Notes under the pieces: model-generated
Databases searched by the model: none
What the model saw: only the letters and a program-made list of their open reading frames with translations
Told to the model about the DNA's origin: nothing
Shown: positions 31,303 through 48,090 of the stretch, one piece after another
Numbering within the stretch: the stretch's first letter is position 1
How the letters are laid out: each line of letters opens with the position of its first letter
IMG/VR virus record: IMGVR_UViG_3300012933_000171
Coordinates: 1-64,000 of that record
Source: a virus
Lineage: Duplodnaviria > Caudoviricetes
Reading direction: 5' to 3' (one strand)
Length of the DNA: 64,000 nt
Program-made: the position numbers and the translations under genes

Positions 31303-32696
31303 TGGATTATAACACACACTTAACTAAAGTAAAACAAGAGCTAGATGAAGTAAGTCCTAGCTTCTGTGTTGCTAAATGGAAGCAAGTTACGATGCACTTG
31401 CAAAACGGACACACGCATTCATGTCATCATCCCACAACGCATTTTGTTTCTGTTGACGAGATTAAAAAGAATCCAACAGCATTACATAATAGTCAATTCA
31501 AAAAAGAACAACGTAAGTTAATGCTTGAGGGCGAACGTCCTAGCGAATGCGACTATTGCTGGCGTGTAGAAGACAATGCGAAAGACAGTTTCAGTGATAG
31601 AATTCACAAGTCAGCAGACGATTCGTGGGCACGTCCATATATCAATGATATATTAACTAAGCCTTGGGATGATAACACAGACCCATCGTATGTAGAAGTC
31701 TCATTCGGTAACGTGTGTAACTTCAAGTGTAGCTATTGCTCACCCCACATCTCAAGTCAATGGATGGAAGAAATTGAACGATTTGGTCCCTACCCTACAA
31801 AGCATAACTTCAACAACTTGACTTGGATCAAGCAACAGAATCAGATGCCTATTCCAAACAATCAGGACAATCCCTATGTTGATGCGTTCTGGGAATGGTT
31901 CCCTACTATGTACAAAGAATTAAAGTACTTTAGAATCACGGGCGGCGAACCATTATTGAATAAGAATACGTTCAAGGTCTTAGACTATATTATTGCTAAC
32001 CCTAACCCTAATTTAGAAGTGGCAATCAATACGAATATGAATCCACCTAAAGAACTATTTGACAAGTTCTTAGAGAAGGCTAAGATTATTATTGACGGTA
32101 AGTTACTAAAGAACTTTAAACTATTTACCTCAGCAGAGGCACATGGTAAACAGTCTGAGTATATTCGATTTGGTATGGATTATGACTTGTGGCTTGAGAA
32201 CATCCATAAGACTTATCAAACAATCCCTTCAATGCAGTTTACTATTATGAGCACCTACAACGTACTTAGTTCAACTACATATACACAATTCTTGCAGGAT
32301 GTTCTGGCAATCAAACAAAAGTACGGTACTCCAACGTATAACCCTATGCTATTAGATATTCCTTACTTGCGCTACCCTGAGCATCAGTCAGTCTTTATTA
32401 TGGATGAAGAGCAATTGAATATGCTAAAAGAGCAAGTAACATTCATGTACAAGAACTTAGAGAACAAAGACTGGCCTGATACAATTAATCGCGGGTTCTT
32501 TGTTAATGAAGCTGAGAAGCTAAAAAGAATTTATACAATGGTAGAGCATAGTATTAAAAACCCCACAGAATACACAGAGCAGAACCGTAAAGACTTTGCT
32601 ATCTTTGTGTTAGAACATGATAAACGTAGAGGAACTAACTTCGCTGAGACATTCCCTGAACTATCAGACTTTTTGAGAAAGTGTAAAGACTTATGA
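31302..32696 (+). CDS. Radical SAM protein with N-terminal twitch/SPASM-like region
   Basis: CNFKCSYC (CxxxCxxC), TGGEPLL, and extra Cys motifs (FCVAKW, SCHH, ECDYCW). Confidence 0.85.
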   Translation: MDYNTHLTKVKQELDEVSPSFCVAKWKQVTMHLQNGHTHSCHHPTTHFVSVDEIKKNPTALHNSQFKKEQRKLMLEGERPSECDYCWRVEDNAKDSFSDRIHKSADDSWARPYINDILTKPWDDNTDPSYVEVSFGNVCNFKCSYCSPHISSQWMEEIERFGPYPTKHNFNNLTWIKQQNQMPIPNNQDNPYVDAFWEWFPTMYKELKYFRITGGEPLLNKNTFKVLDYIIANPNPNLEVAINTNMNPPKELFDKFLEKAKIIIDGKLLKNFKLFTSAEAHGKQSEYIRFGMDYDLWLENIHKTYQTIPSMQFTIMSTYNVLSSTTYTQFLQDVLAIKQKYGTPTYNPMLLDIPYLRYPEHQSVFIMDEEQLNMLKEQVTFMYKNLENKDWPDTINRGFFVNEAEKLKRIYTMVEHSIKNPTEYTEQNRKDFAIFVLEHDKRRGTNFAETFPELSDFLRKCKDL

Positions 32697-34123
32697 AATA
32701 TAGAATTCCCTTCTTTTACGATTATGTATTCCCTAGTTTCGTGATGCCAAACGCATTGGTTACCGAAATGGGTTTAATTGATTTCCTCCACTCACTACAC
32801 TCTACGAAAATTGCAAAGAATACAAGTTTTTTTGACCAAACTGAGGGTTATAAAGACCAGACTCCGGTGGTAGCACTATTTGGTGATGCGTTTGGCTCTT
32901 GGCCTAACAGTCTTTCTAGTTCTAATTTATACAGCCCTTGTTATGAAAGGTATATGGATGCAGTACTTGACTCTGTTTATTTTGGTAAAAAGAAGTATGG
33001 TGAAGTTGAATTCAATCGATATGTCTATTTGATTAACGTTACTCCGCATTTAGATATGTTTACGGGGGTAGCTCCTATCGGCAGTAAGATGAACGGCGAG
33101 TACTTCTGGAAGCATATGTCAGCCGAAGCATTACATGATGCCCAACAGGGAACTGCTATTATCTTATTAGATTACGGGCAAGAAAACTTTGTCGAAAGAC
33201 AAACTTATGTTAACTTGCATAAAGGATTAGAAAATTCAGGAATCCATAAGTCTAATGTTATTTTAGCACTCAACAGTTTCAATGCAAAAGAAATATACGA
33301 GTCTTGGTTTACCCCTGAAGAACGATTGATTGAAGTGTTTAACTGGCCATTCGTTACTATGCATACAGTTGAGGAGTTTTGCAACAATCCCCATATTAGA
33401 GTTAGTCCCGAAGATTTTCAAGCGTCACGGAACACATTAAGAGACAACCATTATCTATTTAAAATTCGCAGAGCAAGAACACATCGTCAAGCATTGCTAT
33501 TTAAATTAGCTTCAGATGACTTATTACAATACGGAGATTGGTCATGTCTGTCACCAATCGAATTTGACCAACGTGAATATATAGGTCTAACTCAAAGATA
33601 TTATTTTGAATTCGATGATGACAAAGTTAAAAATTTAATATCCAATACCCCTAAAACACTAAAGCACGAGAGTAATCTAGATTATACTCAAATCAGTGCA
33701 TGGACTGATACTAACCCTGATGCTCATATTTCATCATATTTTTATATTTGCACAGAGACATTCACGCACGGTGAGCATAAGTCACTGACAGAGAAGGTTT
33801 TTAAGCCTATTGCTAACTTCCAACCATTCTTGTTCATGGCTTATCCGGGCGCACTAAAAATGCTACAATCCTTAGGGTTCAAAACGTTCAGCCCCTTTAT
33901 TGACGAATCATATGATGATGAACTTGATGAAGGGAAACGTTTGAATATGATATACCGAGAGATAGTTAGACTATCTAGTATGAGTAAAGAAGAAATTCAT
34001 GCATGGTATTGGTCTATGGAAGCTATTCTAATATACAATCAAAAGCACTTATTAAGTCTTAGAGATAATGAAGAATTAGCTAGTAGCTTGATAAAATATC
34101 TACATGCAAGGGTGACTCAATAA
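32693..34123 (+). CDS. Glycosyltransferase-like protein (GT-B-type C-terminus)
   Basis: ICTET...LTEKVFKPI.NFQPF...LGFKTFSPFIDESYD. Paralog of 35287-36675. Confidence 0.55.
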   Translation: MKYRIPFFYDYVFPSFVMPNALVTEMGLIDFLHSLHSTKIAKNTSFFDQTEGYKDQTPVVALFGDAFGSWPNSLSSSNLYSPCYERYMDAVLDSVYFGKKKYGEVEFNRYVYLINVTPHLDMFTGVAPIGSKMNGEYFWKHMSAEALHDAQQGTAIILLDYGQENFVERQTYVNLHKGLENSGIHKSNVILALNSFNAKEIYESWFTPEERLIEVFNWPFVTMHTVEEFCNNPHIRVSPEDFQASRNTLRDNHYLFKIRRARTHRQALLFKLASDDLLQYGDWSCLSPIEFDQREYIGLTQRYYFEFDDDKVKNLISNTPKTLKHESNLDYTQISAWTDTNPDAHISSYFYICTETFTHGEHKSLTEKVFKPIANFQPFLFMAYPGALKMLQSLGFKTFSPFIDESYDDELDEGKRLNMIYREIVRLSSMSKEEIHAWYWSMEAILIYNQKHLLSLRDNEELASSLIKYLHARVTQ

Positions 34124-34133
34124 ATATTCTGCT

Positions 34134-34679
34134 ATGAATTACAAAAATAACAGTTGGGATCATTTTGCTGTTTCATATTTGAACACATTTGGTACAGACG
34201 TTCCGGTATATTCCCCCTCAATATACCGTGAATATCGTGGGGAAATCTTTACAACATATCATACAGACAAACACCCAGTTTCACAGGTTATACCGTCAAG
34301 AGCCAATGTACACGGAAGGTTCTCGAAGTCGTATCAGAACGTCCTAAGGGGCTTACACTATGATACCAAGACTTGGAAACTAGTTCAAGCAGTAGTAGGG
34401 GACATTTACTTAGTTGTACTTGACGTTAGAGAAGATAGCAAAACGTTAGGTAAATGGGAATCATATATTATCACGGAAAAGACACGTGACCAAGTATTAA
34501 TTCCCCCGGGTTTTGCTAACGGGCACTATGCTCTTACTGACTGTATCTTCCACTATAACTTATTCTACGAGGGCGACTACGTAGACGAGAATCAGCAGGG
34601 CGTTATTAAGTATAATGACACACGATTCAACATCGAATGGCCTACAGATAAACCAACATTACAAAGACGAGACAGATGA
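34134..34679 (+). CDS. rmlC: dTDP-4-dehydrorhamnose 3,5-epimerase family (cupin)
   Basis: S..NVLRGLH...KLV..V.G.I..VVLD.R.DS.T.GKW...Q.LIPPGFANG...I.WP. Confidence 0.85.
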   Translation: MNYKNNSWDHFAVSYLNTFGTDVPVYSPSIYREYRGEIFTTYHTDKHPVSQVIPSRANVHGRFSKSYQNVLRGLHYDTKTWKLVQAVVGDIYLVVLDVREDSKTLGKWESYIITEKTRDQVLIPPGFANGHYALTDCIFHYNLFYEGDYVDENQQGVIKYNDTRFNIEWPTDKPTLQRRDR

Positions 34680-35302
34680 TTAACTTAGAACAATACCCTA
34701 TCGTGCGTGACGCACAATATACCAAAGACGACTTGATTAATTTTGAGAATTTAATCGTAAGTCACTGGGAAAATGCTAAAATTAGAGGCCCAGTGCATCT
34801 ATCTAGTAATAATGAAGAACAACTGATTGAGATATTCAAAAGAATTAAAACAACTGATTGGGTGTTTAGTAATTGGCGCAGTCATTACCATGCTTTATTA
34901 AAGGGAATGGATCCTAGCTATATTGAGAATGAGATTCTTAACGGTAAGTCTATCAGCGTTTGTAACATTGATGAAAAGTTCTATAGCTCTGCTATTGTCG
35001 GCGGTACTCTATCGATTGCTTTAGGAGTTGCTCAAGCTATTAAAAGTAACGGTCTGCCAGATAAAGTATGGTGCTTTGTGGGAGACATGAGTTTTGAGTC
35101 AGGAATCTTCTATGAAGTACACAAGTATGCACGTAACTTTGACTTACCGTTATACTTTATAGTCGAGGATAATGATGTTTCTACATACACACCCACTGTT
35201 GCAACATGGGAAAAGAAACGAGAAATCCCCTCAGACGTTATTCACTATTCTTACAAAAGTAAATATCCTCACTATGGTTCAGGAAAATGGATCGCATTTT
35301 AA
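34676..35302 (+). CDS. ThDP-dependent enzyme, E1-alpha-like diphosphate-binding subunit (minimal)
   Basis: GPVHLS..NEE, WRSHYHALLKG, SAIVGG and the GD-x(~26)-EDN ThDP motif. Confidence 0.8.
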   Translation: MINLEQYPIVRDAQYTKDDLINFENLIVSHWENAKIRGPVHLSSNNEEQLIEIFKRIKTTDWVFSNWRSHYHALLKGMDPSYIENEILNGKSISVCNIDEKFYSSAIVGGTLSIALGVAQAIKSNGLPDKVWCFVGDMSFESGIFYEVHKYARNFDLPLYFIVEDNDVSTYTPTVATWEKKREIPSDVIHYSYKSKYPHYGSGKWIAF

Positions 35303-36675
35303 AATTAGTATATGATAACTGGACTACTGATGGGTTCCCATTACCCAACGGTCGCCATCCACTCATTAACAAACTATTGCGTCAAGATATCAAAGAAAAT
35401 CACAGAGAGTCTTGGTCACATGCACAAAACTATCTTAGTGAAAAGATAGAAGGAAACGCTTTTCTTTATGACCACTCTAATTTCTGGAGTTACTTTAAAA
35501 GATTTAATAACAAAACAGAGATTGTAAGCCCTAATCAAGTCACTGATGACAATTCAGTGTATGTATGGCCTATCGAAGTTCGCACTGGTTTACATGATAC
35601 ACCAAAGAGTCACACTTTAGTTATTAATGGAAAAACAGATAGATATTCACTAAAGGATACTATTAGTCCTGAGTTACTAAAACTAATGAAGTTGGGTAAA
35701 GTTAAGATAGCAATCAACTATGCACACGACCCGGCTAACAACATGAGAGATATCAAGGAAATCGAAGACTATTTTTCTAATTTAGGTATCTTGGGATCCA
35801 ATATCTTTCTTATTCCTGGAAACGATTGTTCCCGTGAGTACAAGTTAGCAAACCCTAAGGCTAAACTACATATCACCGCAACTAAATTATTAATGTGCCA
35901 GCAGCTTGCAGCAGAAATACAGTCATTTCCGTGTGTGACCTCTTTGGGATATGTATCAGATATTGTACGAGAGAGTGACTTAGACCAATCAGTAATAAGA
36001 CCTAAACGATTTTTGTGTTTTAATAGAACCATGCGCCCACATCGTTACATATTGGGTTATATGGCATTAAAATTAAATCTGTTAGATAATAGTATCTTTA
36101 GCTTTTTGAATAAGTTTGATTATAATGTCGAGTCAGTTCTTAATGAACTTGAAACCTTTGAGTTCAGTGATAGTAATGACTTTTCTAAGGCTCTACATGA
36201 TTTGATTCCATACGAATTAGATACTCAGCATTTATCACAAAATGAACGTCAAGGATTTAACTCAGCTAACAGTAAACAATCTTGGTTCAAAGACACTTAT
36301 CTTCATATAACTAGTGAGACTAGGTTTATAGAAGGTGAGACACCGTTTGTATCAGAAAAGACTTGGAAACCAATTGCCAATCTTCAACCCTTTGTTATGG
36401 TTGGGAATCATCATACTCTTAGTTATTTAAAAGAGTTAGGGTTCAAAACATTCAGTCCGTTTATTGATGAATCATATGACGAAATCACGGACTATAAACT
36501 TCGCATGAAGCATATCTATAGTGAAATCGAACGATTAAACAATATGCCAATACAAGAGCTACATGATTGGTATTACTCTATTAAAGATGTTCTATTACAC
36601 AATCAACAATTATTAATGACTATGAGTTCATTGAACCCATACGAAGAAACATTCACATACTTAAAAGGAAATTAA
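35287..36675 (+). CDS. Glycosyltransferase-like protein
   Basis: FLCFNR..RPHR, ITSET, SEKTWKPI..LQPF, LGFKTFSPFIDESYD. Confidence 0.55.
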   Translation: MDRILKLVYDNWTTDGFPLPNGRHPLINKLLRQDIKENHRESWSHAQNYLSEKIEGNAFLYDHSNFWSYFKRFNNKTEIVSPNQVTDDNSVYVWPIEVRTGLHDTPKSHTLVINGKTDRYSLKDTISPELLKLMKLGKVKIAINYAHDPANNMRDIKEIEDYFSNLGILGSNIFLIPGNDCSREYKLANPKAKLHITATKLLMCQQLAAEIQSFPCVTSLGYVSDIVRESDLDQSVIRPKRFLCFNRTMRPHRYILGYMALKLNLLDNSIFSFLNKFDYNVESVLNELETFEFSDSNDFSKALHDLIPYELDTQHLSQNERQGFNSANSKQSWFKDTYLHITSETRFIEGETPFVSEKTWKPIANLQPFVMVGNHHTLSYLKELGFKTFSPFIDESYDEITDYKLRMKHIYSEIERLNNMPIQELHDWYYSIKDVLLHNQQLLMTMSSLNPYEETFTYLKGN

Positions 36676-37659
36676 ATGGAATTCAAAAACAAAACAGTAG
36701 TAATTACTGGCGCTAATGGTTTAGTGGGTCTACCTACTGTAAAGAAGTGTTTAGCTGAGGGTGCATCTAAAGTGTACGCAGTAGACATTAAGATTGGTAA
36801 TGAGTTACTAGCACTTCAGAATGATAATCCTAACTTGGTTATCGTTAATAAAGACTTAACTTACTTAACTAACTGCGAAGATTTGTTTGCAGGGGAGAAG
36901 ATTAACATTGTACTCCATATTGCGGGTATTAAGGGTTCCCCCGCACGTAGTTCTAAGCAACCGTGCGATTATCTATTCCCCATGCTTATGTTTAATACAA
37001 ACATGATTAAGGCAGCGTTTGATGCCAAAGTTGATTGGTTTGTATATCTATCTAGTGTTGGAGTATATCAGCCAGCAGAATTAATGCGTGAAGACGATGT
37101 ATGGGTCACAACTCCTAGTAAGAACGATTGGTATCCTGGCTGGACAAAACGTATGGGTGAAGCTACACTAGAATCATTGACTGTACAGTACGGTTGGGAT
37201 AACTGGACAGTAATTCGTCCTAGCAATATCTACGGTACAAACGATAACTTTGCAGAAGATGCAACCGTTATTAGTACGAATATCTGGAAACTATACAATG
37301 TGCCCGGAGATGATATTGTATGCTGGGGTAACGGTTCTGCACGTAGAGACTTTGTATTCGGTGATGACGTTGCCCAAGCTACTATTGACGTAGTTAAGAA
37401 AGAAGTCAAAGACATTATTAACTACGGATGTGGAGAAGCAGTATCTATTAAAGAAACAATTGAAACAATTGTGGAAACATTTAAAGAAATATCCGGAAAA
37501 CAGTTGACAATTGTATGGGATGAGAGTAAAATGAACGGAGATCCTGTTCGCTGTTTAGATGGAACTCGCCAAGCAAAGTATGGCATTGTCCCTCAAACTA
37601 CTCTTAAAGAGGGTATCAAGCGTTCAATGATTGCATACAAAGAAAGACTTGGCAAATGA
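36676..37659 (+). CDS. NAD-dependent epimerase/reductase (extended SDR, GDP-fucose-synthase-like)
   Basis: ITGANGLVG Rossmann motif, RPSNIYG, WGNGSARRDF. Confidence 0.85.
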   Translation: MEFKNKTVVITGANGLVGLPTVKKCLAEGASKVYAVDIKIGNELLALQNDNPNLVIVNKDLTYLTNCEDLFAGEKINIVLHIAGIKGSPARSSKQPCDYLFPMLMFNTNMIKAAFDAKVDWFVYLSSVGVYQPAELMREDDVWVTTPSKNDWYPGWTKRMGEATLESLTVQYGWDNWTVIRPSNIYGTNDNFAEDATVISTNIWKLYNVPGDDIVCWGNGSARRDFVFGDDVAQATIDVVKKEVKDIINYGCGEAVSIKETIETIVETFKEISGKQLTIVWDESKMNGDPVRCLDGTRQAKYGIVPQTTLKEGIKRSMIAYKERLGK

Positions 37660-38648
37660 AAAAGACAGACAGAATATTAGTAACAGGTGCAAGTGGATTT
37701 ATTGGATCCAACATATTGCGTGTGTTATATCAGCAAGGTTTTACGAACCTAGTAGCAAATTCAATGACTCGTGACTTGCGAAACGATTTTCCCGGTTGTG
37801 AAACTATTAAACTAGTTAAGGGTGATTTAAACAGTGAGGCATTTTGCAAGAGCCTCACTGAGGGCATCGATGTTGTAATTCATGGTGCAGCTAACACAAG
37901 CAATGCACTAGATACTAAGTTTAATCCATTACTACATGTCACTCCTAACGTGACAATGAACACTATTTTAATGGAACAATCTTGGATTAATAAAGTACGC
38001 AAGTTTATCTTTATTAGTACAGCTAACGTTAACGGAGACTTGGGTGAAGTTTATGCTGTAGAAGATCCAAACTTTATGAATATGCCCCTAGTTCCTGTAT
38101 ATAAAGCAGTTGGGGCTATGAAAAGATTTGGAGAAATGATGTGCGATTTCTTTAGTAATCAAATTCATGACCCAATGCAGTGTATTATTATTCGTCCTAG
38201 CAATGCGTTCGGACCTAATGACAAGTATGACTTTGAAAAATGTCACGTTACCCCTGCAAATATTCGCAAAGTGGCAGACGGATTAAACCCCATCCCAGTA
38301 TGGGGTGACGGTACTGAGATTCGTGACGTACTACATGCTGACGATATGGCTGGTGGCATTGTCTATGTTGCAGAACACGTTGACAAATACGATATCTATA
38401 ACGTTAGTTACGGAGAAGGTTTCAGTGTGAATCAATTGCTTGAGTGGATGAAAGAAGCAGATAATAACACTAACCCAATTGAATACGTGAATAACAGAGC
38501 GCCCATGATTCCTGTTCGATTAGTTTCTAATGAGAAATTAAAACAATTGGGCTGGAAGCCAAAGCGTGAGATTAAAGAAGCATTGAAAGATACTATTGAA
38601 TGGTATCGCTCACACAAAGACCAATTTGATCCTAATTCTAAGCCATGA
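37656..38648 (+). CDS. NAD-dependent epimerase/reductase (extended SDR)
   Basis: VTGASGFIG, RPSNAFGP.D, CHV.PA.IRK, WGDGTEIRD. Confidence 0.85.
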   Translation: MKKTDRILVTGASGFIGSNILRVLYQQGFTNLVANSMTRDLRNDFPGCETIKLVKGDLNSEAFCKSLTEGIDVVIHGAANTSNALDTKFNPLLHVTPNVTMNTILMEQSWINKVRKFIFISTANVNGDLGEVYAVEDPNFMNMPLVPVYKAVGAMKRFGEMMCDFFSNQIHDPMQCIIIRPSNAFGPNDKYDFEKCHVTPANIRKVADGLNPIPVWGDGTEIRDVLHADDMAGGIVYVAEHVDKYDIYNVSYGEGFSVNQLLEWMKEADNNTNPIEYVNNRAPMIPVRLVSNEKLKQLGWKPKREIKEALKDTIEWYRSHKDQFDPNSKP

Positions 38649-39583
38649 GTAAAGTTTTAATTACCGGGGGAGCAGGATATCTTGGCTCCACACTAGCAGA
38701 ATATCTATTAATTAATGGATACGAAGTCACAATATTAGACAATCTAATGTACAAGCAATTGTCAGTACTACACTTGTTCAAACGTGATAAGTTTAAGTTC
38801 ATTAAGGGTGACGTTAGAAACACTACAATGTTGCAGAAACTAGTAGAACAGCATGACGTTATTATCCCCTTAGCAGCTATTGTGGGTATGCCCGCGTGTA
38901 GAGATAACCCTCAACTAGCAATTGACGTTAACTATATTCACATTAAGAACATTGTAGACGTATTACGTGATGACCAGAAACTAATCATCCCTAATACTAA
39001 TAGTCAATATGGCTCTAGCCCGGATATCATCACAGAAGAATCACCATTTAAACCATTGAGTTTATATGCTGAAACCAAGTGCAACGCAGAAGCATGTGTG
39101 CTACAAAAGGGTAACGGCGTTGTATTACGTTTAGCTACTGTATTCGGAGTAAGCCCAAGAATGCGTCAAGACTTACTGGTAAACGACTTTACTTACAAAG
39201 CAGTGACAGATGGTTATCTAGTTTTATTTGAGGGTCACTTCAAGCGTAACTATATACATGTACAGGATATTGCTAGAACCTTTCAGTTCATCATTGAAAA
39301 CTATGAACAGTGTAGAGGTGAAGTATATAATGTGGGACTATCTAGTGCTAACTTGAGCAAACTTGAGTTAGCTCAGACGATTAAGAAGTATATTCCAAAA
39401 TTAGTTATTAAAGAGGATGAATTTAATAAAGACTTTGACCAGCGTAATTATATTGTCTCTAACGAGAAATTAGAGAGTTTGGGATGGAGTCCTAGATTTG
39501 ATATTGATTATGGGGTCAAGCAACTAATTGAAAGCTATCAGTTAATCACAACAGTAAACAACACAAATTTCACAAACCTATGA
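38645..39583 (+). CDS. NAD-dependent epimerase/dehydratase
   Basis: ITGGAGYLG, YAETK (YxxxK), RLATVFGVSPRMR.DLLVNDF. Confidence 0.88.
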   Translation: MSKVLITGGAGYLGSTLAEYLLINGYEVTILDNLMYKQLSVLHLFKRDKFKFIKGDVRNTTMLQKLVEQHDVIIPLAAIVGMPACRDNPQLAIDVNYIHIKNIVDVLRDDQKLIIPNTNSQYGSSPDIITEESPFKPLSLYAETKCNAEACVLQKGNGVVLRLATVFGVSPRMRQDLLVNDFTYKAVTDGYLVLFEGHFKRNYIHVQDIARTFQFIIENYEQCRGEVYNVGLSSANLSKLELAQTIKKYIPKLVIKEDEFNKDFDQRNYIVSNEKLESLGWSPRFDIDYGVKQLIESYQLITTVNNTNFTNL

Positions 39584-40041
39584 GCAAAAACAAACAACCA
39601 AAACAACGTAGATACATTCAGACATTGAGCGAATTGATTGACCGTCTTTCAATCGTTCAATTAAAAGAAGTGTTTATTTCAGAGCATAAAGAGATGTATG
39701 CACAGGAGATTAGCGATATCGTACATGATATTCAGATTATCCTAGACGAATCTGACGCAGTATTAGATGCTGAAACTATCCGTGCTATTATTGTATGCTC
39801 ACAGATGAACTTACATATCTGGCACAACGAGAGTAATTACCGTCGTGGTATCAAAGATGGAAACAACTTAGAACTAACACACGGATTGAACGGTATTCGT
39901 AATACTAGTAAGAACATTATCCAAGAAGTTATTGGTGGGCGTAAAGATTATAAAGTAGACTGCTTAGCCGCAGACTTTAAAGACTGGGAAATCAGTTGGA
40001 ATCGTGACGTATCTAAAGATAACAAGCCATCAACACCATGA
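39580..40041 (+). CDS. Helical hypothetical protein of glycan clusters (DUF4254-like)
   Basis: TLSELIDRLSIVQLKE...N..IW..E...R...N..R pattern. Confidence 0.5.
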   Translation: MSKNKQPKQRRYIQTLSELIDRLSIVQLKEVFISEHKEMYAQEISDIVHDIQIILDESDAVLDAETIRAIIVCSQMNLHIWHNESNYRRGIKDGNNLELTHGLNGIRNTSKNIIQEVIGGRKDYKVDCLAADFKDWEISWNRDVSKDNKPSTP

Positions 40042-40577
40042 CTAAACCACAAACTACCCTGTACAAGGACGAATTGACACGAGCAATGACGTTCTTGGGA
40101 CAACAAGATAACACAATCTTTATTGGACAACAGATTGTCTATGCAGGAAACCCTATGAGTACTACACTTACTGAGGTTTCTAAAGACAAGATGATTGAAT
40201 TACCCGTCATGGAAGAAACACAAATGGGTATGAGTCTGGGATTAGCAATGGTGGGTAAGACTGTTATTAGCTTTTACCCACGTTGGGACTTTATTATCTC
40301 AGCAACTAATCAAATGGTTAATCACTTAGACAAGTATGAATCAATGACTGGTAAACAAGCTAATGTCATTGTTCGTTTGGGTAAAGGTTCTGACACCCCG
40401 TTAGATCCGGGCGTACAACACAAGAATAGTTATTTGGATGAGTTTAAGTCTATGTGTAAGAACATTACATTCCATGACTTACAAACGTCCGAAAACATTT
40501 ACGAAACTTATATTAATGCGTATAATCAAGGTGGAGTTCACGTTATTGTAGAATATCCACAAAAGTATTTTGAATAA
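40038..40577 (+). CDS. ThDP-dependent enzyme, E1-beta-like pyrimidine-binding subunit (lacks C-terminal domain)
   Basis: IELPVMEETQMGMSLGLA, YPRWDF...A.NQ.VNHLDK, G.QH, V.IVEY. Confidence 0.8.
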   Translation: MTKPQTTLYKDELTRAMTFLGQQDNTIFIGQQIVYAGNPMSTTLTEVSKDKMIELPVMEETQMGMSLGLAMVGKTVISFYPRWDFIISATNQMVNHLDKYESMTGKQANVIVRLGKGSDTPLDPGVQHKNSYLDEFKSMCKNITFHDLQTSENIYETYINAYNQGGVHVIVEYPQKYFE

Positions 40578-40681
40578 TGTTTAAAAAACTATACGATTTA
40601 ACAATCGGGAAATTGATAAAAGAGTACCGATATCGTAAACGCTTGAAAGAGTTACGGGGACGAGATCCCTTTATCTATTAA
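40577..40681 (+). CDS. Small basic 34-aa protein ending DPFIY (not in ORF track)
   Basis: MFKKLYDLTIGKLIKEYRYRKRLKELRGRDPFIY*. TAATG overlap upstream, ends 1 nt before the carbamoyltransferase. Confidence 0.75.
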   Translation: MFKKLYDLTIGKLIKEYRYRKRLKELRGRDPFIY

Positions 40682-40682
40682 T

Positions 40683-42173
40683 ATGAATTATATTGGTATC
40701 AGTTGCGGGTTTCACGATGCCGCAATATCCGTCGTCAGTGACAAGGGTGAAGTACTATTTGCTGACCATTCAGAACGTCATAGTAAAATCAAGCACGACA
40801 AAGAGTTGTGTGAAGGTTTAATACAAGAAGCATTGAAACACGCAGGTAGTGACTATGAACTTCACTTCTATGAAAGACCAGTAAAGAAGTTCTTGCGTAG
40901 ACTACGTGCAGGGGAGAAACCCTCACTATCTTCAATGTTCACTTGTATGAATATTGGATTAAAGAATACCAAACTGTTACGTAACGGTAAGTATCGTACT
41001 CTACACACGCATGACCATCACAAGACTCATGCGGCATCAGGGTTTCAAACTAGCCCCTACGATGATGCAACTGTAGTAGTGATTGATAGTATCGGAGAGT
41101 TTGAAACTATCACTATATGGGATGCTACATACGTTAATGGCATCGCACAGTATAAGAAGATATATAGTCAGACATATCCTGATTCAATTGGATTGTTCTA
41201 TAGTGCTATGACTAAACGTGTAGGACTCAAGCCCCTAGATGAAGAATATATCTTAATGGGTATGAGTGCTTATGGCAACCCAACACATGCATCCAAAATG
41301 TATAGCGACTTTATCGAAGATGCAGTAGAATTAAAGTTTAGAGAGAACTTGCATGTTGGTGTACCTGATGATTATCTAGAGGGTGCCGATATTATGGATA
41401 TTGCTAATTCTAGTCAACTGGTAGTTGAGCATTTGATTGACAAAGTAATATTAAAAGCTAGACTATTAGGTAAGAGCAAGAACCTAGTATATAGTGGTGG
41501 AGTAGCATTAAATTGTCTTGCTAACAGAAACTTAGGGAAATACTTTGAACAAATATGGATTATGCCTAATCCCGGTGATGCTGGGAGTAGCCTTGGCGCT
41601 GCCTGTCTGGCTTATGGGGGTAAAGTTAACTGGAACAATAGTTATCTTGGGTTTGATATTCATGGTGATTATCCTGTTGATGACTTACTTAATGAGTTGC
41701 TTACTACACAAATTGTGGGAGTGGCTTCCGGGCGAGCCGAATTCGGACCTAGGAGTCTTGGAAACCGCTCGTTACTTGCTGACCCCAGAAGAAAAGAAAT
41801 CAAGGAAAAAGTAAATGACATTAAACGTAGACAACAATATAGACCCTTTGCGCCAGTTATTCTGGAAGAGTTGGTTCATCAGCATTTTATCATGCCTAGT
41901 AATTGGGATAACAGTCGGTATATGCAAGTCGTCAGTACTTGCAGGCATCCTGACTTATTTCCTGCTATCGTTCATCATGACGGGACTAGTCGTGTCCAAA
42001 CTGTCCCGAACGACGGATCGGGAATAAGAAAACTCTTAGAAGCATGGTATAAAGAAACGGGCTGTCCTATGTTACTTAACACAAGTTTGAACATTAGAGG
42101 TGAGCCAATGGTTAACGATAGATATGATGCAGATAGATTTGAAACTATGTACGGAGTGAAAGTTTGTAGCTAA
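40683..42173 (+). CDS. O-carbamoyltransferase (NodU/CmcH family)
   Basis: GIS..FHDAA, HHKTHAASG, GGVALNC, PGDAGSSLG, EFGPRSLGNRSLLADP, RPFAP, LNTSLN..GEPMV. Confidence 0.92.
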   Translation: MNYIGISCGFHDAAISVVSDKGEVLFADHSERHSKIKHDKELCEGLIQEALKHAGSDYELHFYERPVKKFLRRLRAGEKPSLSSMFTCMNIGLKNTKLLRNGKYRTLHTHDHHKTHAASGFQTSPYDDATVVVIDSIGEFETITIWDATYVNGIAQYKKIYSQTYPDSIGLFYSAMTKRVGLKPLDEEYILMGMSAYGNPTHASKMYSDFIEDAVELKFRENLHVGVPDDYLEGADIMDIANSSQLVVEHLIDKVILKARLLGKSKNLVYSGGVALNCLANRNLGKYFEQIWIMPNPGDAGSSLGAACLAYGGKVNWNNSYLGFDIHGDYPVDDLLNELLTTQIVGVASGRAEFGPRSLGNRSLLADPRRKEIKEKVNDIKRRQQYRPFAPVILEELVHQHFIMPSNWDNSRYMQVVSTCRHPDLFPAIVHHDGTSRVQTVPNDGSGIRKLLEAWYKETGCPMLLNTSLNIRGEPMVNDRYDADRFETMYGVKVCS

Positions 42174-43909
42174 TGGATATTCAACGTAGAATAGAATTAT
42201 TTAAACAAGGTTATTGGGAAGTTCCTGATAACCTTGATACCACTCACTTCGATTTTAATTGGAGACCTGATCCTTATGATAGACCCTATATCCACCAATT
42301 TGGTACTCAATGGCAAAAGACCGGAGGTCCACGATTCATTATTCCAGAGAATGAAGGAATCAAGTATCAATCACATCAACACGCTATTAGACTGGCTCAG
42401 CCAAACGAGCGCAACTGGCGCCCCCTTAAAGCGAATGTTAGCATGGATTATAGTTGGCATCCTGATGATACCGAGCCTCCCTTTATATATGTTTTTGGAA
42501 ATCAGTGGTATGATGTTCACACTATGCCTACGATTCAGTACCGTGTTAAAGGTGCTACTGAGAAAAAGTATATCACGGACATCAGAGCAAAATTGGACCC
42601 ATGTATGGACAGATGGGAGTCGCCGGACGATATTGGAGACTTTGACTACAGCTGGGAACCGCATCCTGATGAACCACCATTCATCTGGCAGTTCGGCACT
42701 CAATGGCAAAAGAACGGCGGTCCCAAGTATAAGGCTGAAAATGCGACCGTAGTGAAATACTCAGATGTCCAACGTGCAACTAAACTACCCAATAAAGATA
42801 ATCGCAATTGGAGAATAATCGAACCCATTGATATAGAGAGTTTTGATTTTTCTTGGCATCCTGATGATACAGAAGAACCATACAGATATATCTTTGGTAA
42901 CGAGTATCATTCAAGTAAGATTATGCCAACAGTAATGTATAAAGTTTCCGGAGCAAGTTCTGTGAAACACATTACAGACATTAACGCAAAACTCTTAGTC
43001 GATAAAGTATCATTTGTAGATTCTATCTATGATGCAGTTATGGAACATCGATTTGATACAGGATATGTACATTTTCAGAATAGCCAGCATCCAACAGACT
43101 ACAAGATGTTTATCCCTAACTATGAGAATGAAAAACAATATATTCACATCATAGACAACAACGCAGCAATCGTTCCAAAAGGAATCAAACATACTTTATA
43201 TGACAAGTTGACAGATTATCCTTATATTAAGCATGATTGCAGTACATATGAAAAGCCACTAGACATTATCTTCTTTAGTAACGGAGAAACTTGTGCAGAA
43301 GAAAACTATCAACGTTTAGTTGATATGAACTTACCTAATCGTTTAGTAAGAGTTGATGGAGTTAACGGTCGTGTAGCTAGTCAACATGCCGCAGCGAATA
43401 GCAGCGAAACACCGTGGTACTTCTTAGTCAATGCAAAGTTAAGAGTTGACGAATCATTTGACTTTAGTTGGCAACCCGACATTATGAAGTCACGTAGACA
43501 TTATATCTTTAGAGCAAAGAATCCTATCAACGGATTAGTCTATGGACATATGGCTATGGTCGCTAACAATAAGAAACTTACACTAGAGACTACGGGTAAT
43601 GGACTTGACTTTACAATGGAAAGAGCCCATGAAGTTGTAGATATATTGTCTGGCGAAGCTGTGTTTAACAGTGAATGGGATATATGGCGCACTAGCTTTA
43701 GAGAATGTATTAAGCTGTGTAACGCAACCGACGAACAATCTAAAGAACGTTTACATATATGGACAACTGTTGCTTCTGGTCCGTTTGCCCAAAGTTGTTT
43801 ACAGGGTGCTAAGGATGCAGTAGAATACTATGAATCAGTCAACGGAGACTTTGAAAAACTCAAATTATCCTATGATTGGGCATGGTTAAGAGAGAAATTC
43901 AATAAATAA
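42173..43909 (+). CDS. Repeat-containing glycosyltransferase-like protein
   Basis: Four D(F/Y)xW.P.....P(Y/F)I..FG.(Q/E) repeats, followed by a C-terminal domain paralogous to 30355-31302. Confidence 0.55.
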   Translation: MDIQRRIELFKQGYWEVPDNLDTTHFDFNWRPDPYDRPYIHQFGTQWQKTGGPRFIIPENEGIKYQSHQHAIRLAQPNERNWRPLKANVSMDYSWHPDDTEPPFIYVFGNQWYDVHTMPTIQYRVKGATEKKYITDIRAKLDPCMDRWESPDDIGDFDYSWEPHPDEPPFIWQFGTQWQKNGGPKYKAENATVVKYSDVQRATKLPNKDNRNWRIIEPIDIESFDFSWHPDDTEEPYRYIFGNEYHSSKIMPTVMYKVSGASSVKHITDINAKLLVDKVSFVDSIYDAVMEHRFDTGYVHFQNSQHPTDYKMFIPNYENEKQYIHIIDNNAAIVPKGIKHTLYDKLTDYPYIKHDCSTYEKPLDIIFFSNGETCAEENYQRLVDMNLPNRLVRVDGVNGRVASQHAAANSSETPWYFLVNAKLRVDESFDFSWQPDIMKSRRHYIFRAKNPINGLVYGHMAMVANNKKLTLETTGNGLDFTMERAHEVVDILSGEAVFNSEWDIWRTSFRECIKLCNATDEQSKERLHIWTTVASGPFAQSCLQGAKDAVEYYESVNGDFEKLKLSYDWAWLREKFNK

Positions 43910-43913
43910 GTAC

Positions 43914-44009
43914 ATGACGTACTTATTTTGGATAGTCATCGCAGGATTAGTTGGTGGAGCCATCTATTGGATAATGGATTGGAAGAAGCAATTTCCTGAC
44001 GGTGAATGA
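43914..44009 (+). CDS. 31-aa single-pass membrane peptide (not in ORF track)
   Basis: MTYLFWIVIAGLVGGAIYWIMDWKKQFPDGE*. ATG is 5 nt after TAAATA (43903). Confidence 0.55.
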   Translation: MTYLFWIVIAGLVGGAIYWIMDWKKQFPDGE

Positions 44010-44011
44010 TT

Positions 44012-44390
44012 ATTGCTGTATGAAGCGGATAGAAAAGTGTTCTGGACGCGGGTTCGACTCCCGCCAGGTCCACCATAAAGCATACTAGTCGGCGACTAAG
44101 CGTATTGCACGGTCTCTTCGGAGTGAAAGGGTCAGTGGTTCGATTCCACATAGTGTGTTTTATAATGGGCCTGTCATGGTTTCGACAGGGCAACAAGTAA
44201 GTAAGTGGACAGCACGGGAATGTGAAACCCGTAGGATTGGGGGTAAGAGTACAGTAATGTCATGTCAATATGATATCAGTATTTCCCGGTCGCAGAAGCA
44301 AAAAACTTAAATGCAAATGACGAAAGTTACGCATTGGCCGCTTGATAAAAGCGTCCTGGGGTAAGACATACCTCGCAACAGAAACTCAGA
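44012..44390 (+). ncRNA. ssrA: Two-piece (circularly permuted) tmRNA. Acceptor piece ~44012-44075, intervening segment 44076-44166, coding piece from 44167, tag (A)ANDESYALAA*
   Basis: GACGCGGGTTCGACTCCCGCCAGGTCCACCA (T-arm + CCA) precedes GGGCCTG...GGTTTCGAC. GGGCCTG pairs with CAGGTCC including G3:U70. TGCTGT pairs with ACAGCA (P2). Tag ORF at 44313-44345. Confidence 0.93.
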
Positions 44391-44416
44391 AAAGGCTCTT
44401 CGGAGCCTTTTTCTTT
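44389..44416 (+). terminator. Rho-independent terminator after tmRNA
   Basis: AAAAGGCTC-TTCG-GAGCCTTTTTCTTT, a cUUCGg hairpin with a U tract. Confidence 0.9.
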
Positions 44417-44462
44417 GTCAACGTAATGTAAGGCAAAGGCGTTGTATATATAAGGAGCTTAT

Positions 44463-45074: not shown

Positions 45075-45440
45075 ATGTCAAATTTAGGTTGTTTTACTTG
45101 TTTAAGTTGTGGAAAAGTTAATCCTATCAAAGGTCACTCATACACTAACAAGTACTGTAATAATAGTTGCCAACAAGAACACCAACGCAGAAACAAGGCG
45201 TTTGAGAATGTTCAGAAATGGAAAGAATCAGCTACGCCACAAGCGTGGGCAAAGATTCCCGAGTGGGTAAGACAGTACTTGATTAATCAAAGAGAACATC
45301 GTTGCCAGGAATGTGATAACACACATCATAACGGTCTAGCTATCCCATTAGATGTAATCTATAAAGATGGTGACAGTTACAACAACAAAGAAGATAATCT
45401 AATGTTGATATGCCCTAATTGCAAGTCACAAAGAAAATAA
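45075..45440 (+). CDS. HNH-endonuclease-like zinc-binding protein (catalytic His apparently lost)
   Basis: CLSC..KYCNNSC, then CQEC...LDVIYKDGDSYNN..DNL.LICPNC. The usual 'HHIDG' reads 'IYKDG'. Confidence 0.6.
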   Translation: MSNLGCFTCLSCGKVNPIKGHSYTNKYCNNSCQQEHQRRNKAFENVQKWKESATPQAWAKIPEWVRQYLINQREHRCQECDNTHHNGLAIPLDVIYKDGDSYNNKEDNLMLICPNCKSQRK

Positions 45441-45464: not shown

Positions 45465-46010
45465 ATGAAAACAATCGGCGATAAAATCACAAGTTTTGCA
45501 GTCACAGGCGTTAAGCCAGGCGCACTCACACCAGATGGCGCATTCGAAACAATTACTGAAAAGAGTTTTGAAGGCAAGTGGAAAGTAATTGTTTACTACC
45601 CAAAGGACTTCACATTCGTGTGCCCAACTGAAATCGTAGCATACGACAAATTGAATGGCGACTTCGCAGACCGCGATGCTGTTCTAATGATTGGCTCTAC
45701 TGATAATGAATTCTGTAAGTTGGCATGGCGTAATGCACATGAAGACTTGAAGAAGACTAACTCATGGTCATTCGCAGACGTGGCACGTGATGAGAACAGC
45801 TTGGCAGAACAATTGGGTATCTTCTATGGTCCAGCAGGTGCGGCACTTCGTGCAACATTCATCGTTGACCCAGACAACATCATCCAACACGTTACAGTCA
45901 ACAACTTGGACGTTGGTCGTAACCCAGACGAAGCATTGCGTGTACTTGACGCATTGCAAACTGGCGAGTTGTGCCCATGCTCACGCCCAATCGGTGGAGA
46001 AACATTGTAA
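45465..46010 (+). CDS. ahpC: Alkyl hydroperoxide reductase C (2-Cys peroxiredoxin)
   Basis: YPKDFTFVCPTE, RATFIVDP, VGRNPDE.LRVLDALQTGELCPC. Confidence 0.95.
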   Translation: MKTIGDKITSFAVTGVKPGALTPDGAFETITEKSFEGKWKVIVYYPKDFTFVCPTEIVAYDKLNGDFADRDAVLMIGSTDNEFCKLAWRNAHEDLKKTNSWSFADVARDENSLAEQLGIFYGPAGAALRATFIVDPDNIIQHVTVNNLDVGRNPDEALRVLDALQTGELCPCSRPIGGETL

Positions 46011-46528
46011 TGACTGCTTGGGTAGACGCACTTAAAGAGTCTAGTATTCCTGACTATGCTAAGGATACTAAACTAAACATTGACGCTGTAATTAAGCGTA
46101 GTACTCTACCTGTTGAAGAAGCGGAAGCTGTTGCCCTCGCGGCAGCTTTTGCTACTGGCAACAGTAAGTTGTGGACTTGGATGGAAAGTCAAATTGAAAA
46201 CAAGACTGAAACACAAGCCGCATTAACAGCAGGTGCATTGATGGCACAAAACAACATGTGGTATCCATTTGTTGAAATGGCTGACGATGAGAACTTGAAG
46301 GGCTTGCCCGCACAACTTCGCATGAACGCTATCACAACAAGCGGTGGCACAACTAAAGAACGATTTGAAGCATATTCATTGGCTGCAAGTATCGTTGGTA
46401 AGTGTCACTTCTGTGTGAAAGCACACTACGAAGGATTGAAGAAGATGGGCTACACTGTAGAACAACTTCGTGATATCGGTCGCATTGCAAGTGTCATTAA
46501 TTCAGTAGCAAAAGTGGTAGCAAACTAA
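46010..46528 (+). CDS. ahpD: Alkyl hydroperoxide reductase D
   Basis: PDYAKD.KLN, MAQNN.WY, SLAAS.VGKCHFCVKAH. Start set at ATG 46010 (TAATG overlap). Confidence 0.92.
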   Translation: MTAWVDALKESSIPDYAKDTKLNIDAVIKRSTLPVEEAEAVALAAAFATGNSKLWTWMESQIENKTETQAALTAGALMAQNNMWYPFVEMADDENLKGLPAQLRMNAITTSGGTTKERFEAYSLAASIVGKCHFCVKAHYEGLKKMGYTVEQLRDIGRIASVINSVAKVVAN

Positions 46529-46529
46529 A

Positions 46530-46922
46530 ATGGCAAACATGGCAGAGTACTTTGAAAAGAATCGTTATCATGGCTCATATGAGTTCGGTGAACGAGTTTT
46601 CGGTTATTACAATAAGATTCCTTTCATTGGCTCTGTCGGTAGTGACAGTGTAAGGAGTATGGATGAAGGTCCTATCATCACTGTCACACTTGATTTGCCC
46701 ATTAGTGTTGATGGACAATCAAAAAATGTTATAATTGTAAAACACAAAGACATTAAATCTTTGTTGAGAGATTACGATGCGTCGGGAGTTCCAAAGGCCG
46801 GAGCGACTGATTCTAAACCAGTAGGTAGTGGGTTCAATTCCCATCCGACGCACCAAGAACAACCAAAGTCTAATAGTAAATCACTGTTAGAAAACTTAAA
46901 GAAACTTAAAGGTAAAAAATAA
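46530..46922 (+). CDS. Hypothetical protein whose 3' part overlaps a tRNA gene
   Basis: 130 aa ORF coupled to both neighbours. Codons ~84-109 coincide with a tRNA cloverleaf. Confidence 0.65.
   Translation: MANMAEYFEKNRYHGSYEFGERVFGYYNKIPFIGSVGSDSVRSMDEGPIITVTLDLPISVDGQSKNVIIVKHKDIKSLLRDYDASGVPKAGATDSKPVGSGFNSHPTHQEQPKSNSKSLLENLKKLKGKK
46708..46735 (+). promoter_or_regulatory. Candidate intragenic extended -10 promoter for the tRNA
   Basis: TTGATG-16 nt-TATAAT with TGn, ending ~43 nt upstream of the tRNA 5' end. Confidence 0.45.
46779..46855 (+). tRNA. tRNA with CUA anticodon (putative amber suppressor)
   Basis: Acceptor GCGTCGG/CCGACGC + A + encoded CCA. D arm GTTC(C)..GG..(G)GAGC. Anticodon arm ACTGA-TTCTAAA-CCAGT (CTA at 46813-46815). 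T arm GTGGG-TTCAATT-CCCAT. Confidence 0.78.
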
Positions 46923-47167
46923 TGGATATGGATAATGCGGCAGTTTTCTTAGCCGGTACAATCTTATATGCTATTGGTTTGATTGTGATTCTAGCAGCCA
47001 CTATCTTCGCAAACAACTTGATTCACAAATATTGGAAATCATTTGGCTGGTCATGGTTCCCTGCATTCTTGCAACACGATGCACCGAGATTCATGTCACC
47101 GGAAGAAGCTGCAAAGATTGACCCATCGGTAGATCCAATCAGCGGTGAAAAGCATAAACCAAAATGA
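46922..47167 (+). CDS. Small membrane protein
   Basis: N-terminal hydrophobic helix (AAVFLAGTILYAIGLIVILAATIF). Confidence 0.7.
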   Translation: MDMDNAAVFLAGTILYAIGLIVILAATIFANNLIHKYWKSFGWSWFPAFLQHDAPRFMSPEEAAKIDPSVDPISGEKHKPK

Positions 47168-47995: not shown

Positions 47996-48090
47996 GGCTT
48001 GTGTTATAATAAATACATTGCTAGATAGGCTAGCAGTTCTAACACTCTTTAAACAACATGACCTTAGAGTGTGGTCAGTAAAAGGAAATT

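Follow-up and report, generated by a model that had tools for sequence, protein, structure and literature searches.

A complete tRNA gene with the amber anticodon CUA lies inside, and in the same direction as, a 130-codon open reading frame of a jumbo-phage-like genome, and the bases of the tRNA appear to be read a second time as codons: we put at roughly 70% the probability that both products, the tRNA and the full-length protein, are made from the same DNA. The case rests on two overlapping selective signatures carried by one DNA stretch, the cloverleaf being kept as an RNA structure and the peptide encoded beyond it being kept as protein. The window, i.e. the whole stretch of DNA that was analysed, covers the first 64 kb of one virus record of 77,907 bp. 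A sequence-only reading of this window had noted that the ORF runs straight through a cloverleaf and is joined to the next gene by a TAATG overlap; the coordinates of the ORF (46530..46922), of the tRNA (46779..46855) and of the overlap (46920..46924) all hold. The features of the locus are as follows.

45971..46528, plus strand: ahpD/CMD-like gene, the upstream neighbour, which follows an ahpC-like gene
46530..46922, plus strand: ORF of 130 aa whose translation ends ...KHKDIKSLLRDYDASGVPKAGATDSKPVGSGFNSHPTHQEQPKSNSKSLLENLKKLKGKK; it reads through the tRNA and comprises a predicted beta-barrel core, a linker and a C-terminal helix
46530..46778, plus strand: core coding part of the ORF, residues 1-83; most homologues end near residue 81
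46708..46735, plus strand: sigma-70-like promoter candidate TTGATG-16-TGTTATAAT, inside the coding sequence and ending 43 nt before the tRNA
46779..46855, plus strand: 77-nt tRNA gene of amber suppressor type, with CUA as anticodon and CCA encoded (ARAGORN, Rfam)
46779..46855, plus strand: the same bases as codons 84-109 of the ORF, codon 109 being completed by base 46856
46813..46815, plus strand: anticodon CTA, in a 7-nt loop with U33 (ARAGORN; conserved in 22/22)
46856..46880, plus strand: variable basic linker codons (..QEQPKSNSK) after the tRNA
46881..46919, plus strand: conserved C-terminal tail SLLENLKKLKGKK, a predicted helix (basic, amphipathic)
46920..46924, plus strand: TAATG stop/start overlap between the 130-aa ORF and the next gene, also found in L001-L003 and L005 (same or adjacent in L001-L005)
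46922..47167, plus strand: downstream ORF of 81 aa with a hydrophobic N-terminal stretch; homologous start in L001-L003

The source of the window is probably an uncultured freshwater jumbo myophage. The contig carries genes of T4-like myophage type (those for the hub and the wedge of the baseplate and for tail fibres, together with a 5283-aa ORF and a sugar-modification cluster), its baseplate wedge protein shares ~35% identity with that of Rak2-like jumbo phages of ~350 kb (Serratia phage BF, Erwinia phage pEa_SNUABM_47), and one relative with the same locus is 353 kb long and rated 99% complete; the window is therefore probably about one fifth of a jumbo phage genome. A search of 50,697 GenBank phage records returned no match for 2.5 kb of the locus DNA, for the tRNA or for the protein. 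Across the whole contig ARAGORN detects two RNA genes, a permuted tmRNA (43983..44436) and the tRNA studied here, which lie 2.3 kb apart with the tmRNA upstream; the same tmRNA is found beside the gene in relatives devoid of the tRNA. The stop codon of the ahpD-like gene lies 1 nt before the ATG at 46530, which places the genes in one operon context, and the 81-aa ORF, which begins at the TAATG overlap, would be translationally coupled to the 130-aa ORF. Note that an integration-site remnant was considered and rejected: the tRNA is complete, the PHROG matches contain no integrase and the phage has the appearance of a lytic jumbo myophage.

The tRNA itself is well formed. Rfam model RF00005 matches it with 45.3 bits, against a gathering score of 29, over model positions 1-71 of 71 (E 2e-06), and its minimum-energy fold, taken alone, is the cloverleaf (-27.3 kcal/mol, z -2.97, none of 200 shuffles being as good); the cloverleaf is also the minimum-energy fold within 46742..46925, inside the transcript predicted to start at ~46742. 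For comparison we used 22 distinct CUA tRNAs, window copy included, taken from IMG/VR and metagenome relatives, and counted pairing in the acceptor, anticodon and T stems (17 pairs), the D stem being left out because the alignment is uncertain there. Across the 22 tRNAs, 92.8% of the stem cells are paired, versus 35-41% when the partners are slid; both sides have changed in 11 of the 17 pairs, and none of 500 shuffles reached the covariation score. By contrast with these varying stems, the loop bases T-C-T-A-A-A (T34-A39) and the CCA end are invariant in 22/22 tRNAs, and the T-loop is conserved among the members of the family. The covariance-model scoring proposed in the sequence-only reading thus gave 45.3 bits against 29, with compensatory changes in relatives, which is not what a pseudogene would give.

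Some positions depart from the consensus. The G at position 8, the possible 5-bp D stem and the A31-C39 mismatch to which the same reading had drawn attention are all present in the sequence. More specifically, position 8 is a G in the window and a T in only 5 of the 22 members, the A31-C39 mismatch is a family trait (31-39 is unpaired in 20/22), and the possible fifth D-stem pair of the window copy, C14-G21, is absent in L001 and L090 and hence not conserved. Apart from 31-39, the 17 tested pairs are all paired in the window tRNA; its T loop has an A where 21/22 members have a G, and it differs from the L003 copy at two positions only. The copies of the relatives score 43-62 bits, within the range of the other tRNAs of the same phages. 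Judged by score, G8 and the open 31-39 position are departures from the consensus and not a failure to qualify as a tRNA, and the pairing and covariation data indicate that this is a conserved, slightly unusual tRNA family under structural selection, not a pseudogene. The absence of U8 and the 31-39 mismatch nevertheless mean that efficient decoding is not assured.

The hallmarks of tRNA-Pyl are a very short D loop without G18G19, a 3-nt variable loop, a 6-bp anticodon stem and the presence of pyl genes nearby. The label 'Pyl' given by ARAGORN reflects the CUA anticodon only: the D loop of the window tRNA has GG, its variable loop is 5 nt long and its anticodon stem has five positions (the last one unpaired), so that tRNA-Pyl was rejected and the molecule is built like any ordinary tRNA of class I. 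The PHROG matches obtained for 49 ORFs include no aminoacyl-tRNA synthetase family. When window-type suppressors were compared with the 72 distinct tRNAs of the arrays carried by two relatives (G002 and G003), the best identity to a non-suppressor was 0.69-0.74, with tRNAs of mixed types (Met, Val, Phe, Leu); all four suppressor queries had a short-arm tRNA with anticodon UAA among their best matches, with margins of 0.01-0.03.

The tRNA gene lies sense and in frame in the linker-coding part, so that its 77 bases are also read as ~26 linker residues (ASGVPKAGATDSKPVGSGFNSHPTHQ); one peptide from the linker or tail of the 130-aa ORF is AGATDSKPVGSGFNSHPTHQEQPK. In the ORF frame the loop TCTAAA is read as Ser-Lys, which leaves the TAA of the loop out of frame. 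One frame of the three is open across the window tRNA, as read from the sequence, and this single frame is the one used by the ORF in the window and in the other 14 distinct relatives with frame-1 nesting; no ATG, GTG or TTG is found among the 25 codons of this frame that lie wholly within the tRNA (46779..46853). The frame-1 nested tRNAs are 74 or 77 nt long, i.e. one codon apart, and the loop TAA is out of frame in both, whereas that frame is closed by a stop in 5/5 distinct free-standing copies, whose lengths are 75, 76 and 77 nt.

Pfam and PHROG contain no family for the 130-aa ORF. AlphaFold, run on a 23-sequence alignment, places beta strands at residues 22-71 (mean pLDDT of 70-90 per 10-residue block over residues 11-80) and a helix at residues 116-127, with pLDDT values below 50 for residues 81-114, among which are the tRNA-coded ones. 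According to this model, residues ~20-78 of the protein form a small beta-barrel core, to which a short C-terminal helix is joined by a flexible linker. A Foldseek search of the PDB with the core fold gave no match at E <=0.001, VIA-align returned weak generic small-barrel matches (Tudor/SH3/CAP-Gly-like, Z <=6.2), and the matches for the core in the protein atlas are unnamed viral clusters only.

Relatives of the ORF were collected as 109 IMG/VR matches (80 kept), at least 437 metagenome matches (80 kept) and 89 database clusters. The core family is a protein of ~81 aa ending in ...IIVKHKDIKxLxEY, and 47 of the 89 clusters have a length of 77-84 aa, stopping where the tRNA begins; the expectation, drawn from the window alone, that homologues would stop near this point was therefore borne out, as most end at ...KHKDIKxLxEY, at ~81 aa. 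In one locus (L054), the gene ends with a TAA placed 1 nt before the tRNA. Of the 89 clusters, 23 show the peptide signature that translation of the tRNA gives (SK..SGF.S..HQ), and 21 of these 23 read-through clusters, which overall are down to 51-52% identical with the query, reach the tail motif LL(E/D)(N/R)LK.LKGKK. Among 15 distinct DNA versions of the tail, each Leu is kept while being encoded by four to six different codons (CTA/CTC/CTT/CTG/TTA/TTG). The pN/pS ratio of the tail in frame is 0.26 in the clade of the window (clade i) and 0.24 in a second clade (clade ii), versus 0.82-9.4 out of frame, values that come from small samples (3 and 6 sequences) and from pairwise sums that count shared history repeatedly; the corresponding ratios for the core are 0.54 (clade i) and 0.23 (clade ii). 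The last tail codons (AAA GGT AAA AAA) may be conserved also as the ribosome-binding site of the next gene. From this pattern of substitutions we infer that translating ribosomes cross the tRNA and that the tail is of importance to the phage.

The tail also exists without the tRNA, in P0022 (120 aa) and in L154/L155 (126 aa), where a covariance model of the tRNA family has no match. L154 and the tRNA-bearing L089 share 122 of 150 aligned bases and are nearly identical over the tail. A covariance model of the 22 suppressors, applied to 25 tRNA-less loci with E values up to 10, detected no suppressor-tRNA remnant, its matches being other tRNAs and the tRNA-like part of tmRNAs only; a resemblance of L007/L009 to the tRNA, first seen by eye, was unsupported. 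Of the 19 sequencing runs listed, mostly freshwater metatranscriptomes, four were examined and consist of assembled contigs (no ends, strand or level). A 197-nt contig covers 46698..46891, and its library is probably one of DNA; being assembled only, the contig shows no transcript, end or strand. A 3135-nt contig of a relative, likewise assembled only, extends across the gene and has 186 different letters where the tRNA and the tail would be; it too shows no transcript, end or strand.

We placed these arrangements on a neighbour-joining tree of 110 distinct core sequences (76-column alignment, no support values). The tRNA is linked to the gene in 21 of the 110 distinct loci: it is nested in the frame of the window in 15, nested in another frame in one (L108; peptide EPLKL..AGSIPAKR), preceded by a stop immediately before it in one, and located upstream, ending 8-11 nt before the ATG of the gene, in four. 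The remaining loci have either a long tail and no tRNA (7 of 110) or a short protein and no tRNA (82 of 110). The nested forms fall into at least four to five separate clades, the number of independent origins being approximate because the tree is unsupported. The second nested frame is used in lineage L108/L160, and the upstream copies (L012, L018, L077, L105) sit in an intergenic gap, outside any coding region. G002 and G003 have 29 and 48 tRNA matches, respectively, in large arrays, and the CUA tRNA is not part of them; lying outside the arrays and always at one gene, it is tied to that gene in several arrangements. The nesting may have arisen by insertion of the tRNA into a linker that already existed, or else by loss of a stop and later recruitment of the tail.

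The promoter candidate upstream of the tRNA consists of TTGATG (46708..46713), a 16-nt spacer and TATAAT (46730..46735) preceded by TG. The sequence-only reading, which had placed a promoter of this type ~43 nt before the tRNA within the coding sequence, was right about its presence, and the site co-occurs with a downstream tRNA: TTGA-N17-19-TAnAAT is found in 16/16 distinct loci with a downstream tRNA versus 26/92 others (Fisher 3e-8, a test that ignores phylogeny). A scan for such promoters shows no overall enrichment on the contig (8 sites versus 11.4 +/- 3.9 for shuffled sequence). There are just two occurrences of the combined motif TTGAnn-N-TGnTAnAAT in the 77.9-kb contig, and the identical extended -10 element TGTTATAAT is also found in two intergenic gaps upstream of genes. 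Both hexamers coincide with codons that are conserved (K-I/V-D and V-I-I-V). On these data, the tRNA is likely to be served by a promoter inside the coding sequence.

These data can be assembled into the following scheme. An operon transcript (ahpC-ahpD-ORF-next gene) would be translated through the tRNA sequence to give the full-length protein, and ribosomes would pass at TAATG to the gene that follows. The tRNA would be made mainly from the internal sigma-70-like promoter, with a start near 46742, and would be matured by RNase P and 3' trimming. Were the tRNA cut out of an operon transcript, a stop-less message for the core domain would be left, so that each RNA molecule would yield either the tRNA or the full protein, as in Mukai's selB/selC model. 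We are less confident of the internal promoter, of this mutual exclusion and of any part played in UAG read-through than of the making of the two products.

Regarding the role of the tRNA, suppression of UAG is the most likely one. None of the 70 contig ORFs of at least 60 aa ends in TAG (50 TAA, 20 TGA), while one of 85 does when ORFs of at least 30 aa are considered; off-frame TAG is common on the contig (1070 occurrences). With a crude ORF caller on which all these counts rest, TAG ends 70 of 771 ORFs in the loci of relatives without the tRNA and 10 of 188 in the loci of tRNA-bearing relatives, some of the latter being spurious antisense ORFs. As no ORF on the contig ends in TAG at the 60-aa threshold, the phage would not suffer from its own suppressor. 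A search of 78 kb, out of a genome of probably ~350 kb, gave no in-frame TAG target. Recoding of TAG (code 15) was rejected for the contig, where coding density under code 11 is 96.6% and reading TAG as sense neither lengthens nor merges genes. The capsid-protein matches of relatives G002 and G003, the two with full-length matches, contain no internal stops; a fragmentary capsid-family match in G001 was discarded, as it is a run of small ORFs under any code. Depleted TAG together with a suppressor and no recoded genes matches the intermediate stage of the path proposed by Borges et al. (bioRxiv 10.1101/2021.08.26.457843), in which stop depletion is followed by suppressor acquisition and then by recoding. 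The suppressor may have its targets in the host or in the three quarters of the genome that the contig does not cover.

The sequence-only reading had left two alternatives, dual-use DNA or a decaying tRNA absorbed by C-terminal extension, and the combination of structural selection on the tRNA with coding selection on the tail speaks for the former. That a decaying pseudogene was absorbed into the extension is highly improbable and is rejected at the window locus, even though extended ORFs without a detectable tRNA do occur (L154/L155, L007/L009, P0022), some of them keeping the tail (L154/L155, P0022), and though the window copy has G8 and the T-loop A found against a G in 21/22: the score is well above the Rfam cut-off, every tested pair is formed except 31-39, which is open throughout the family, and two positions alone separate the window copy from L003. 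Could the element instead be a tRNA-like processing signal, at which RNase P cleavage uncouples the downstream genes, the CUA being incidental? The lack of U8 in 17/22 members, the 31-39 mismatch in 20/22, the absence of a TAG target in 78 kb and the position of the element, always beside or inside one gene and outside the tRNA arrays, would fit such a signal. A signal of this kind, however, would hardly require seven loop bases (U33, CUA, A37 and A38 included) to be invariant in 22/22 while the stems vary, nor the conservation of the CCA end and of the T-loop; furthermore, the upstream copies (L012, L018, L077, L105) lie outside any mRNA coding region, and TAG is absent as a stop on the contig (ORFs >=60 aa). 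We therefore regard this explanation as quite improbable.

A somewhat stronger challenge, although still unlikely in our view, is that an ordinary tRNA gene happens to be crossed by an accidental open frame, the real protein being the ~83-aa core and the extension being functionless or rarely made. Most homologues are indeed 77-84 aa long (47/89 clusters) and end at the tRNA start, the gene of L054 stops with TAA 1 nt ahead of the tRNA, it is not unlikely that one of the three frames across a tRNA is open, and the end of the tail overlaps the ribosome-binding site and the start of the next gene, which could explain part of its conservation. An accidental frame does not account, however, for a tail pN/pS of 0.24-0.26 in frame versus 0.8-9.4 out of frame, for the synonymous turnover of the Leu codons, for a tail reached in 21/23 read-through clusters at identities down to 51-52%, or for its persistence without the tRNA (P0022, L154). 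The production of both the tRNA and the full-length protein thus remains our preferred reading.

In a more speculative version of this dual use, which we think improbable, the barrel protein and the amber-suppressor tRNA would form one functional module acting as a switch. Early operon transcripts would be translated through the tRNA to give the full protein; later on, the internal promoter and RNase P would dominate, yielding suppressor tRNA and rendering the operon messages stop-less, and these messages would be cleared by the phage's own tmRNA, whose proximity is suggestive only. As TAG stops have been purged from the phage's own genes, UAG read-through could be switched on without self-harm, and this might serve to derail host proteins or to pave the way for TAG recoding. 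If the protein acts on termination or on the tRNA, as it may, this would explain why one tRNA is tied to one gene in four arrangements.

Use of the same bases for a tRNA and for a protein is rare, and the present locus is a phage case with independent selection signatures on both readings, in which the suppressor nature of the tRNA links dual coding to changes of stop-codon meaning in phages. Natural controls exist, namely the gene without the tRNA, the tRNA just after the stop and the tRNA upstream of the gene. On the practical side, annotation pipelines that drop ORFs overlapping tRNAs would truncate or lose the 130-aa gene.

How does this arrangement compare with known systems? In the thrU-tyrU-glyT-thrT-tufB operon of E. 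coli, tRNAs and a protein message are carried by one transcript and separated by RNases, but there the tRNAs lie outside the coding region and no base is read twice. Suppressor tRNAs are known from stop-codon-recoded phages (crAss-like, Lak and others; Borges et al., bioRxiv 10.1101/2021.08.26.457843), with which our phage shares a CUA tRNA, a low GC content and few or no TAG stops; it differs from them in that no in-frame TAG was found, and their suppressors are not described as nested in ORFs in the passages compared here. The mitochondrial tRNA-Lys located in cox1 of Armadillidium vulgare (Doublet et al. 2015, as cited in PMC8124441) resembles the present case in being fully within the coding region and in direct orientation. 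That tRNA, however, is a truncated one of 60 nt in an organelle genome under size pressure, whereas ours is full-sized and belongs to a genome of ~350 kb, as estimated from relatives.

The closest parallel is the tRNA-Sec gene selC nested in the selB ORF of Alphaproteobacteria, a bioinformatic prediction (Mukai, Int J Mol Sci 2021, PMC8124441) for which tRNA processing and synthesis of the full-length protein were modelled as alternatives for each transcript. So far, this is the one previous report of a whole tRNA gene within a bacterial-type ORF, according both to the paper's own claim and to our search of the literature on nested or embedded tRNA genes, which returned selC-in-selB only and no phage case, subscription journals being largely outside its reach. 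As far as the passages on selC describe it, the two systems have in common a whole tRNA gene that lies within a protein ORF in the sense direction, an ORF stop that overlaps the start of the next ORF, tRNA lengths that keep the frame, and relatives in which a stop precedes the tRNA (here L054) or in which a remnant or nothing is left of it (here the tail without tRNA of L154/L155 and P0022). They differ in several respects. Here the host of the arrangement is a phage, the tRNA is of amber-suppressor type, and the protein has no known tie to the tRNA, unlike SelB, which binds tRNA-Sec. Moreover, the phage tRNA lies in a mid-protein linker, and a coding signature was measured for the tail that comes after it, a feature unreported in those passages of PMC8124441. 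Finally, the phage family has a conserved promoter-like site in the coding sequence, makes use of a second frame (L108/L160) and, in other lineages, carries the same tRNA immediately upstream of the gene.

Codons 84–108 of the small barrel gene (window 46779..46853), which are also tRNA sequence and encode most of the linker between the β-barrel core and the C-terminal helix, differ among relatives in a way that leans synonymous in the ORF frame: pN/pS is 0.26–0.43 in this frame versus 0.78–4.0 in the other frames, all of these values being based on small numbers. This in-frame synonymous bias hints that the linker peptide may be under constraint as well. One lineage of relatives reads its tRNA of the same family (anticodon CUA) in a different ORF frame:

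L108:2728-2801, CUA tRNA read through by the homologous ORF
L160:225-298, CUA tRNA read through by the homologous ORF

The peptide read from the tRNA in that other frame is EPLKL..AGSIPAKRTK, and the homologous ORF stops 14–20 nt past the tRNA 3′ end. On the whole contig carrying the window (G000:C1:1-77907), TAG serves as stop in none of the 70 ORFs of at least 60 aa, and out-of-frame TAG is frequent.

The extended −10 element found near the nested tRNA, TGTTATAAT, recurs at two other places:

window 48002..48010, + strand, extended −10 in an intergenic gap, immediately upstream of a gene
contig 65267..65275, + strand, extended −10 in an intergenic gap, immediately upstream of a gene

Both gaps rank among the few sizeable intergenic gaps of the contig, and these two copies are probably genuine promoters of the phage.

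The remainder of the window, up to the small barrel gene, includes the following features:

9434..25285, + strand, one 5283-aa ORF with baseplate genes on one side and small structural genes on the other
31302..43909, + strand, sugar-/nucleotide-sugar-modifying gene cluster
43966..44436, + strand, permuted (two-piece) tmRNA of betaproteobacterial type (Rfam beta_tmRNA, 116.9 bits)
45075..45440, HNH endonuclease-like ORF preceding the next pair
45465..46528, + strand, ahpC-like peroxiredoxin gene (Pfam PF00578, 3.1e-23) and ahpD/CMD-like gene (PF02627, 4.8e-11), directly upstream of the small barrel gene

The sugar cluster comprises a radical SAM gene, a dTDP-4-dehydrorhamnose epimerase-like gene, three nucleotide-sugar epimerases and one carbamoyltransferase. 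The phage-encoded tmRNA specifies the tag peptide ANDESYALAA, and relatives L001, L008, L066 and L072 carry the same element 1.0–2.3 kb ahead of their small barrel gene; the betaproteobacterial type of the tmRNA hints at a betaproteobacterial host.

Two relatives' genomes, G002 and G003, carry large tRNA arrays (loci L171–L200), with 29 and 48 Rfam matches, respectively:

G002, tRNA array at about 167-178 kb
G003, tRNA array at about 118-135 kb

Among the tRNAs in these arrays is one of 78 nt whose anticodon is UAA and whose variable arm is short; it has the acceptor end GCGC...GCGC-A in common with the suppressors, that is, the CUA tRNAs. A tRNA combining a Leu anticodon with a short arm is unusual in bacteria-type systems.
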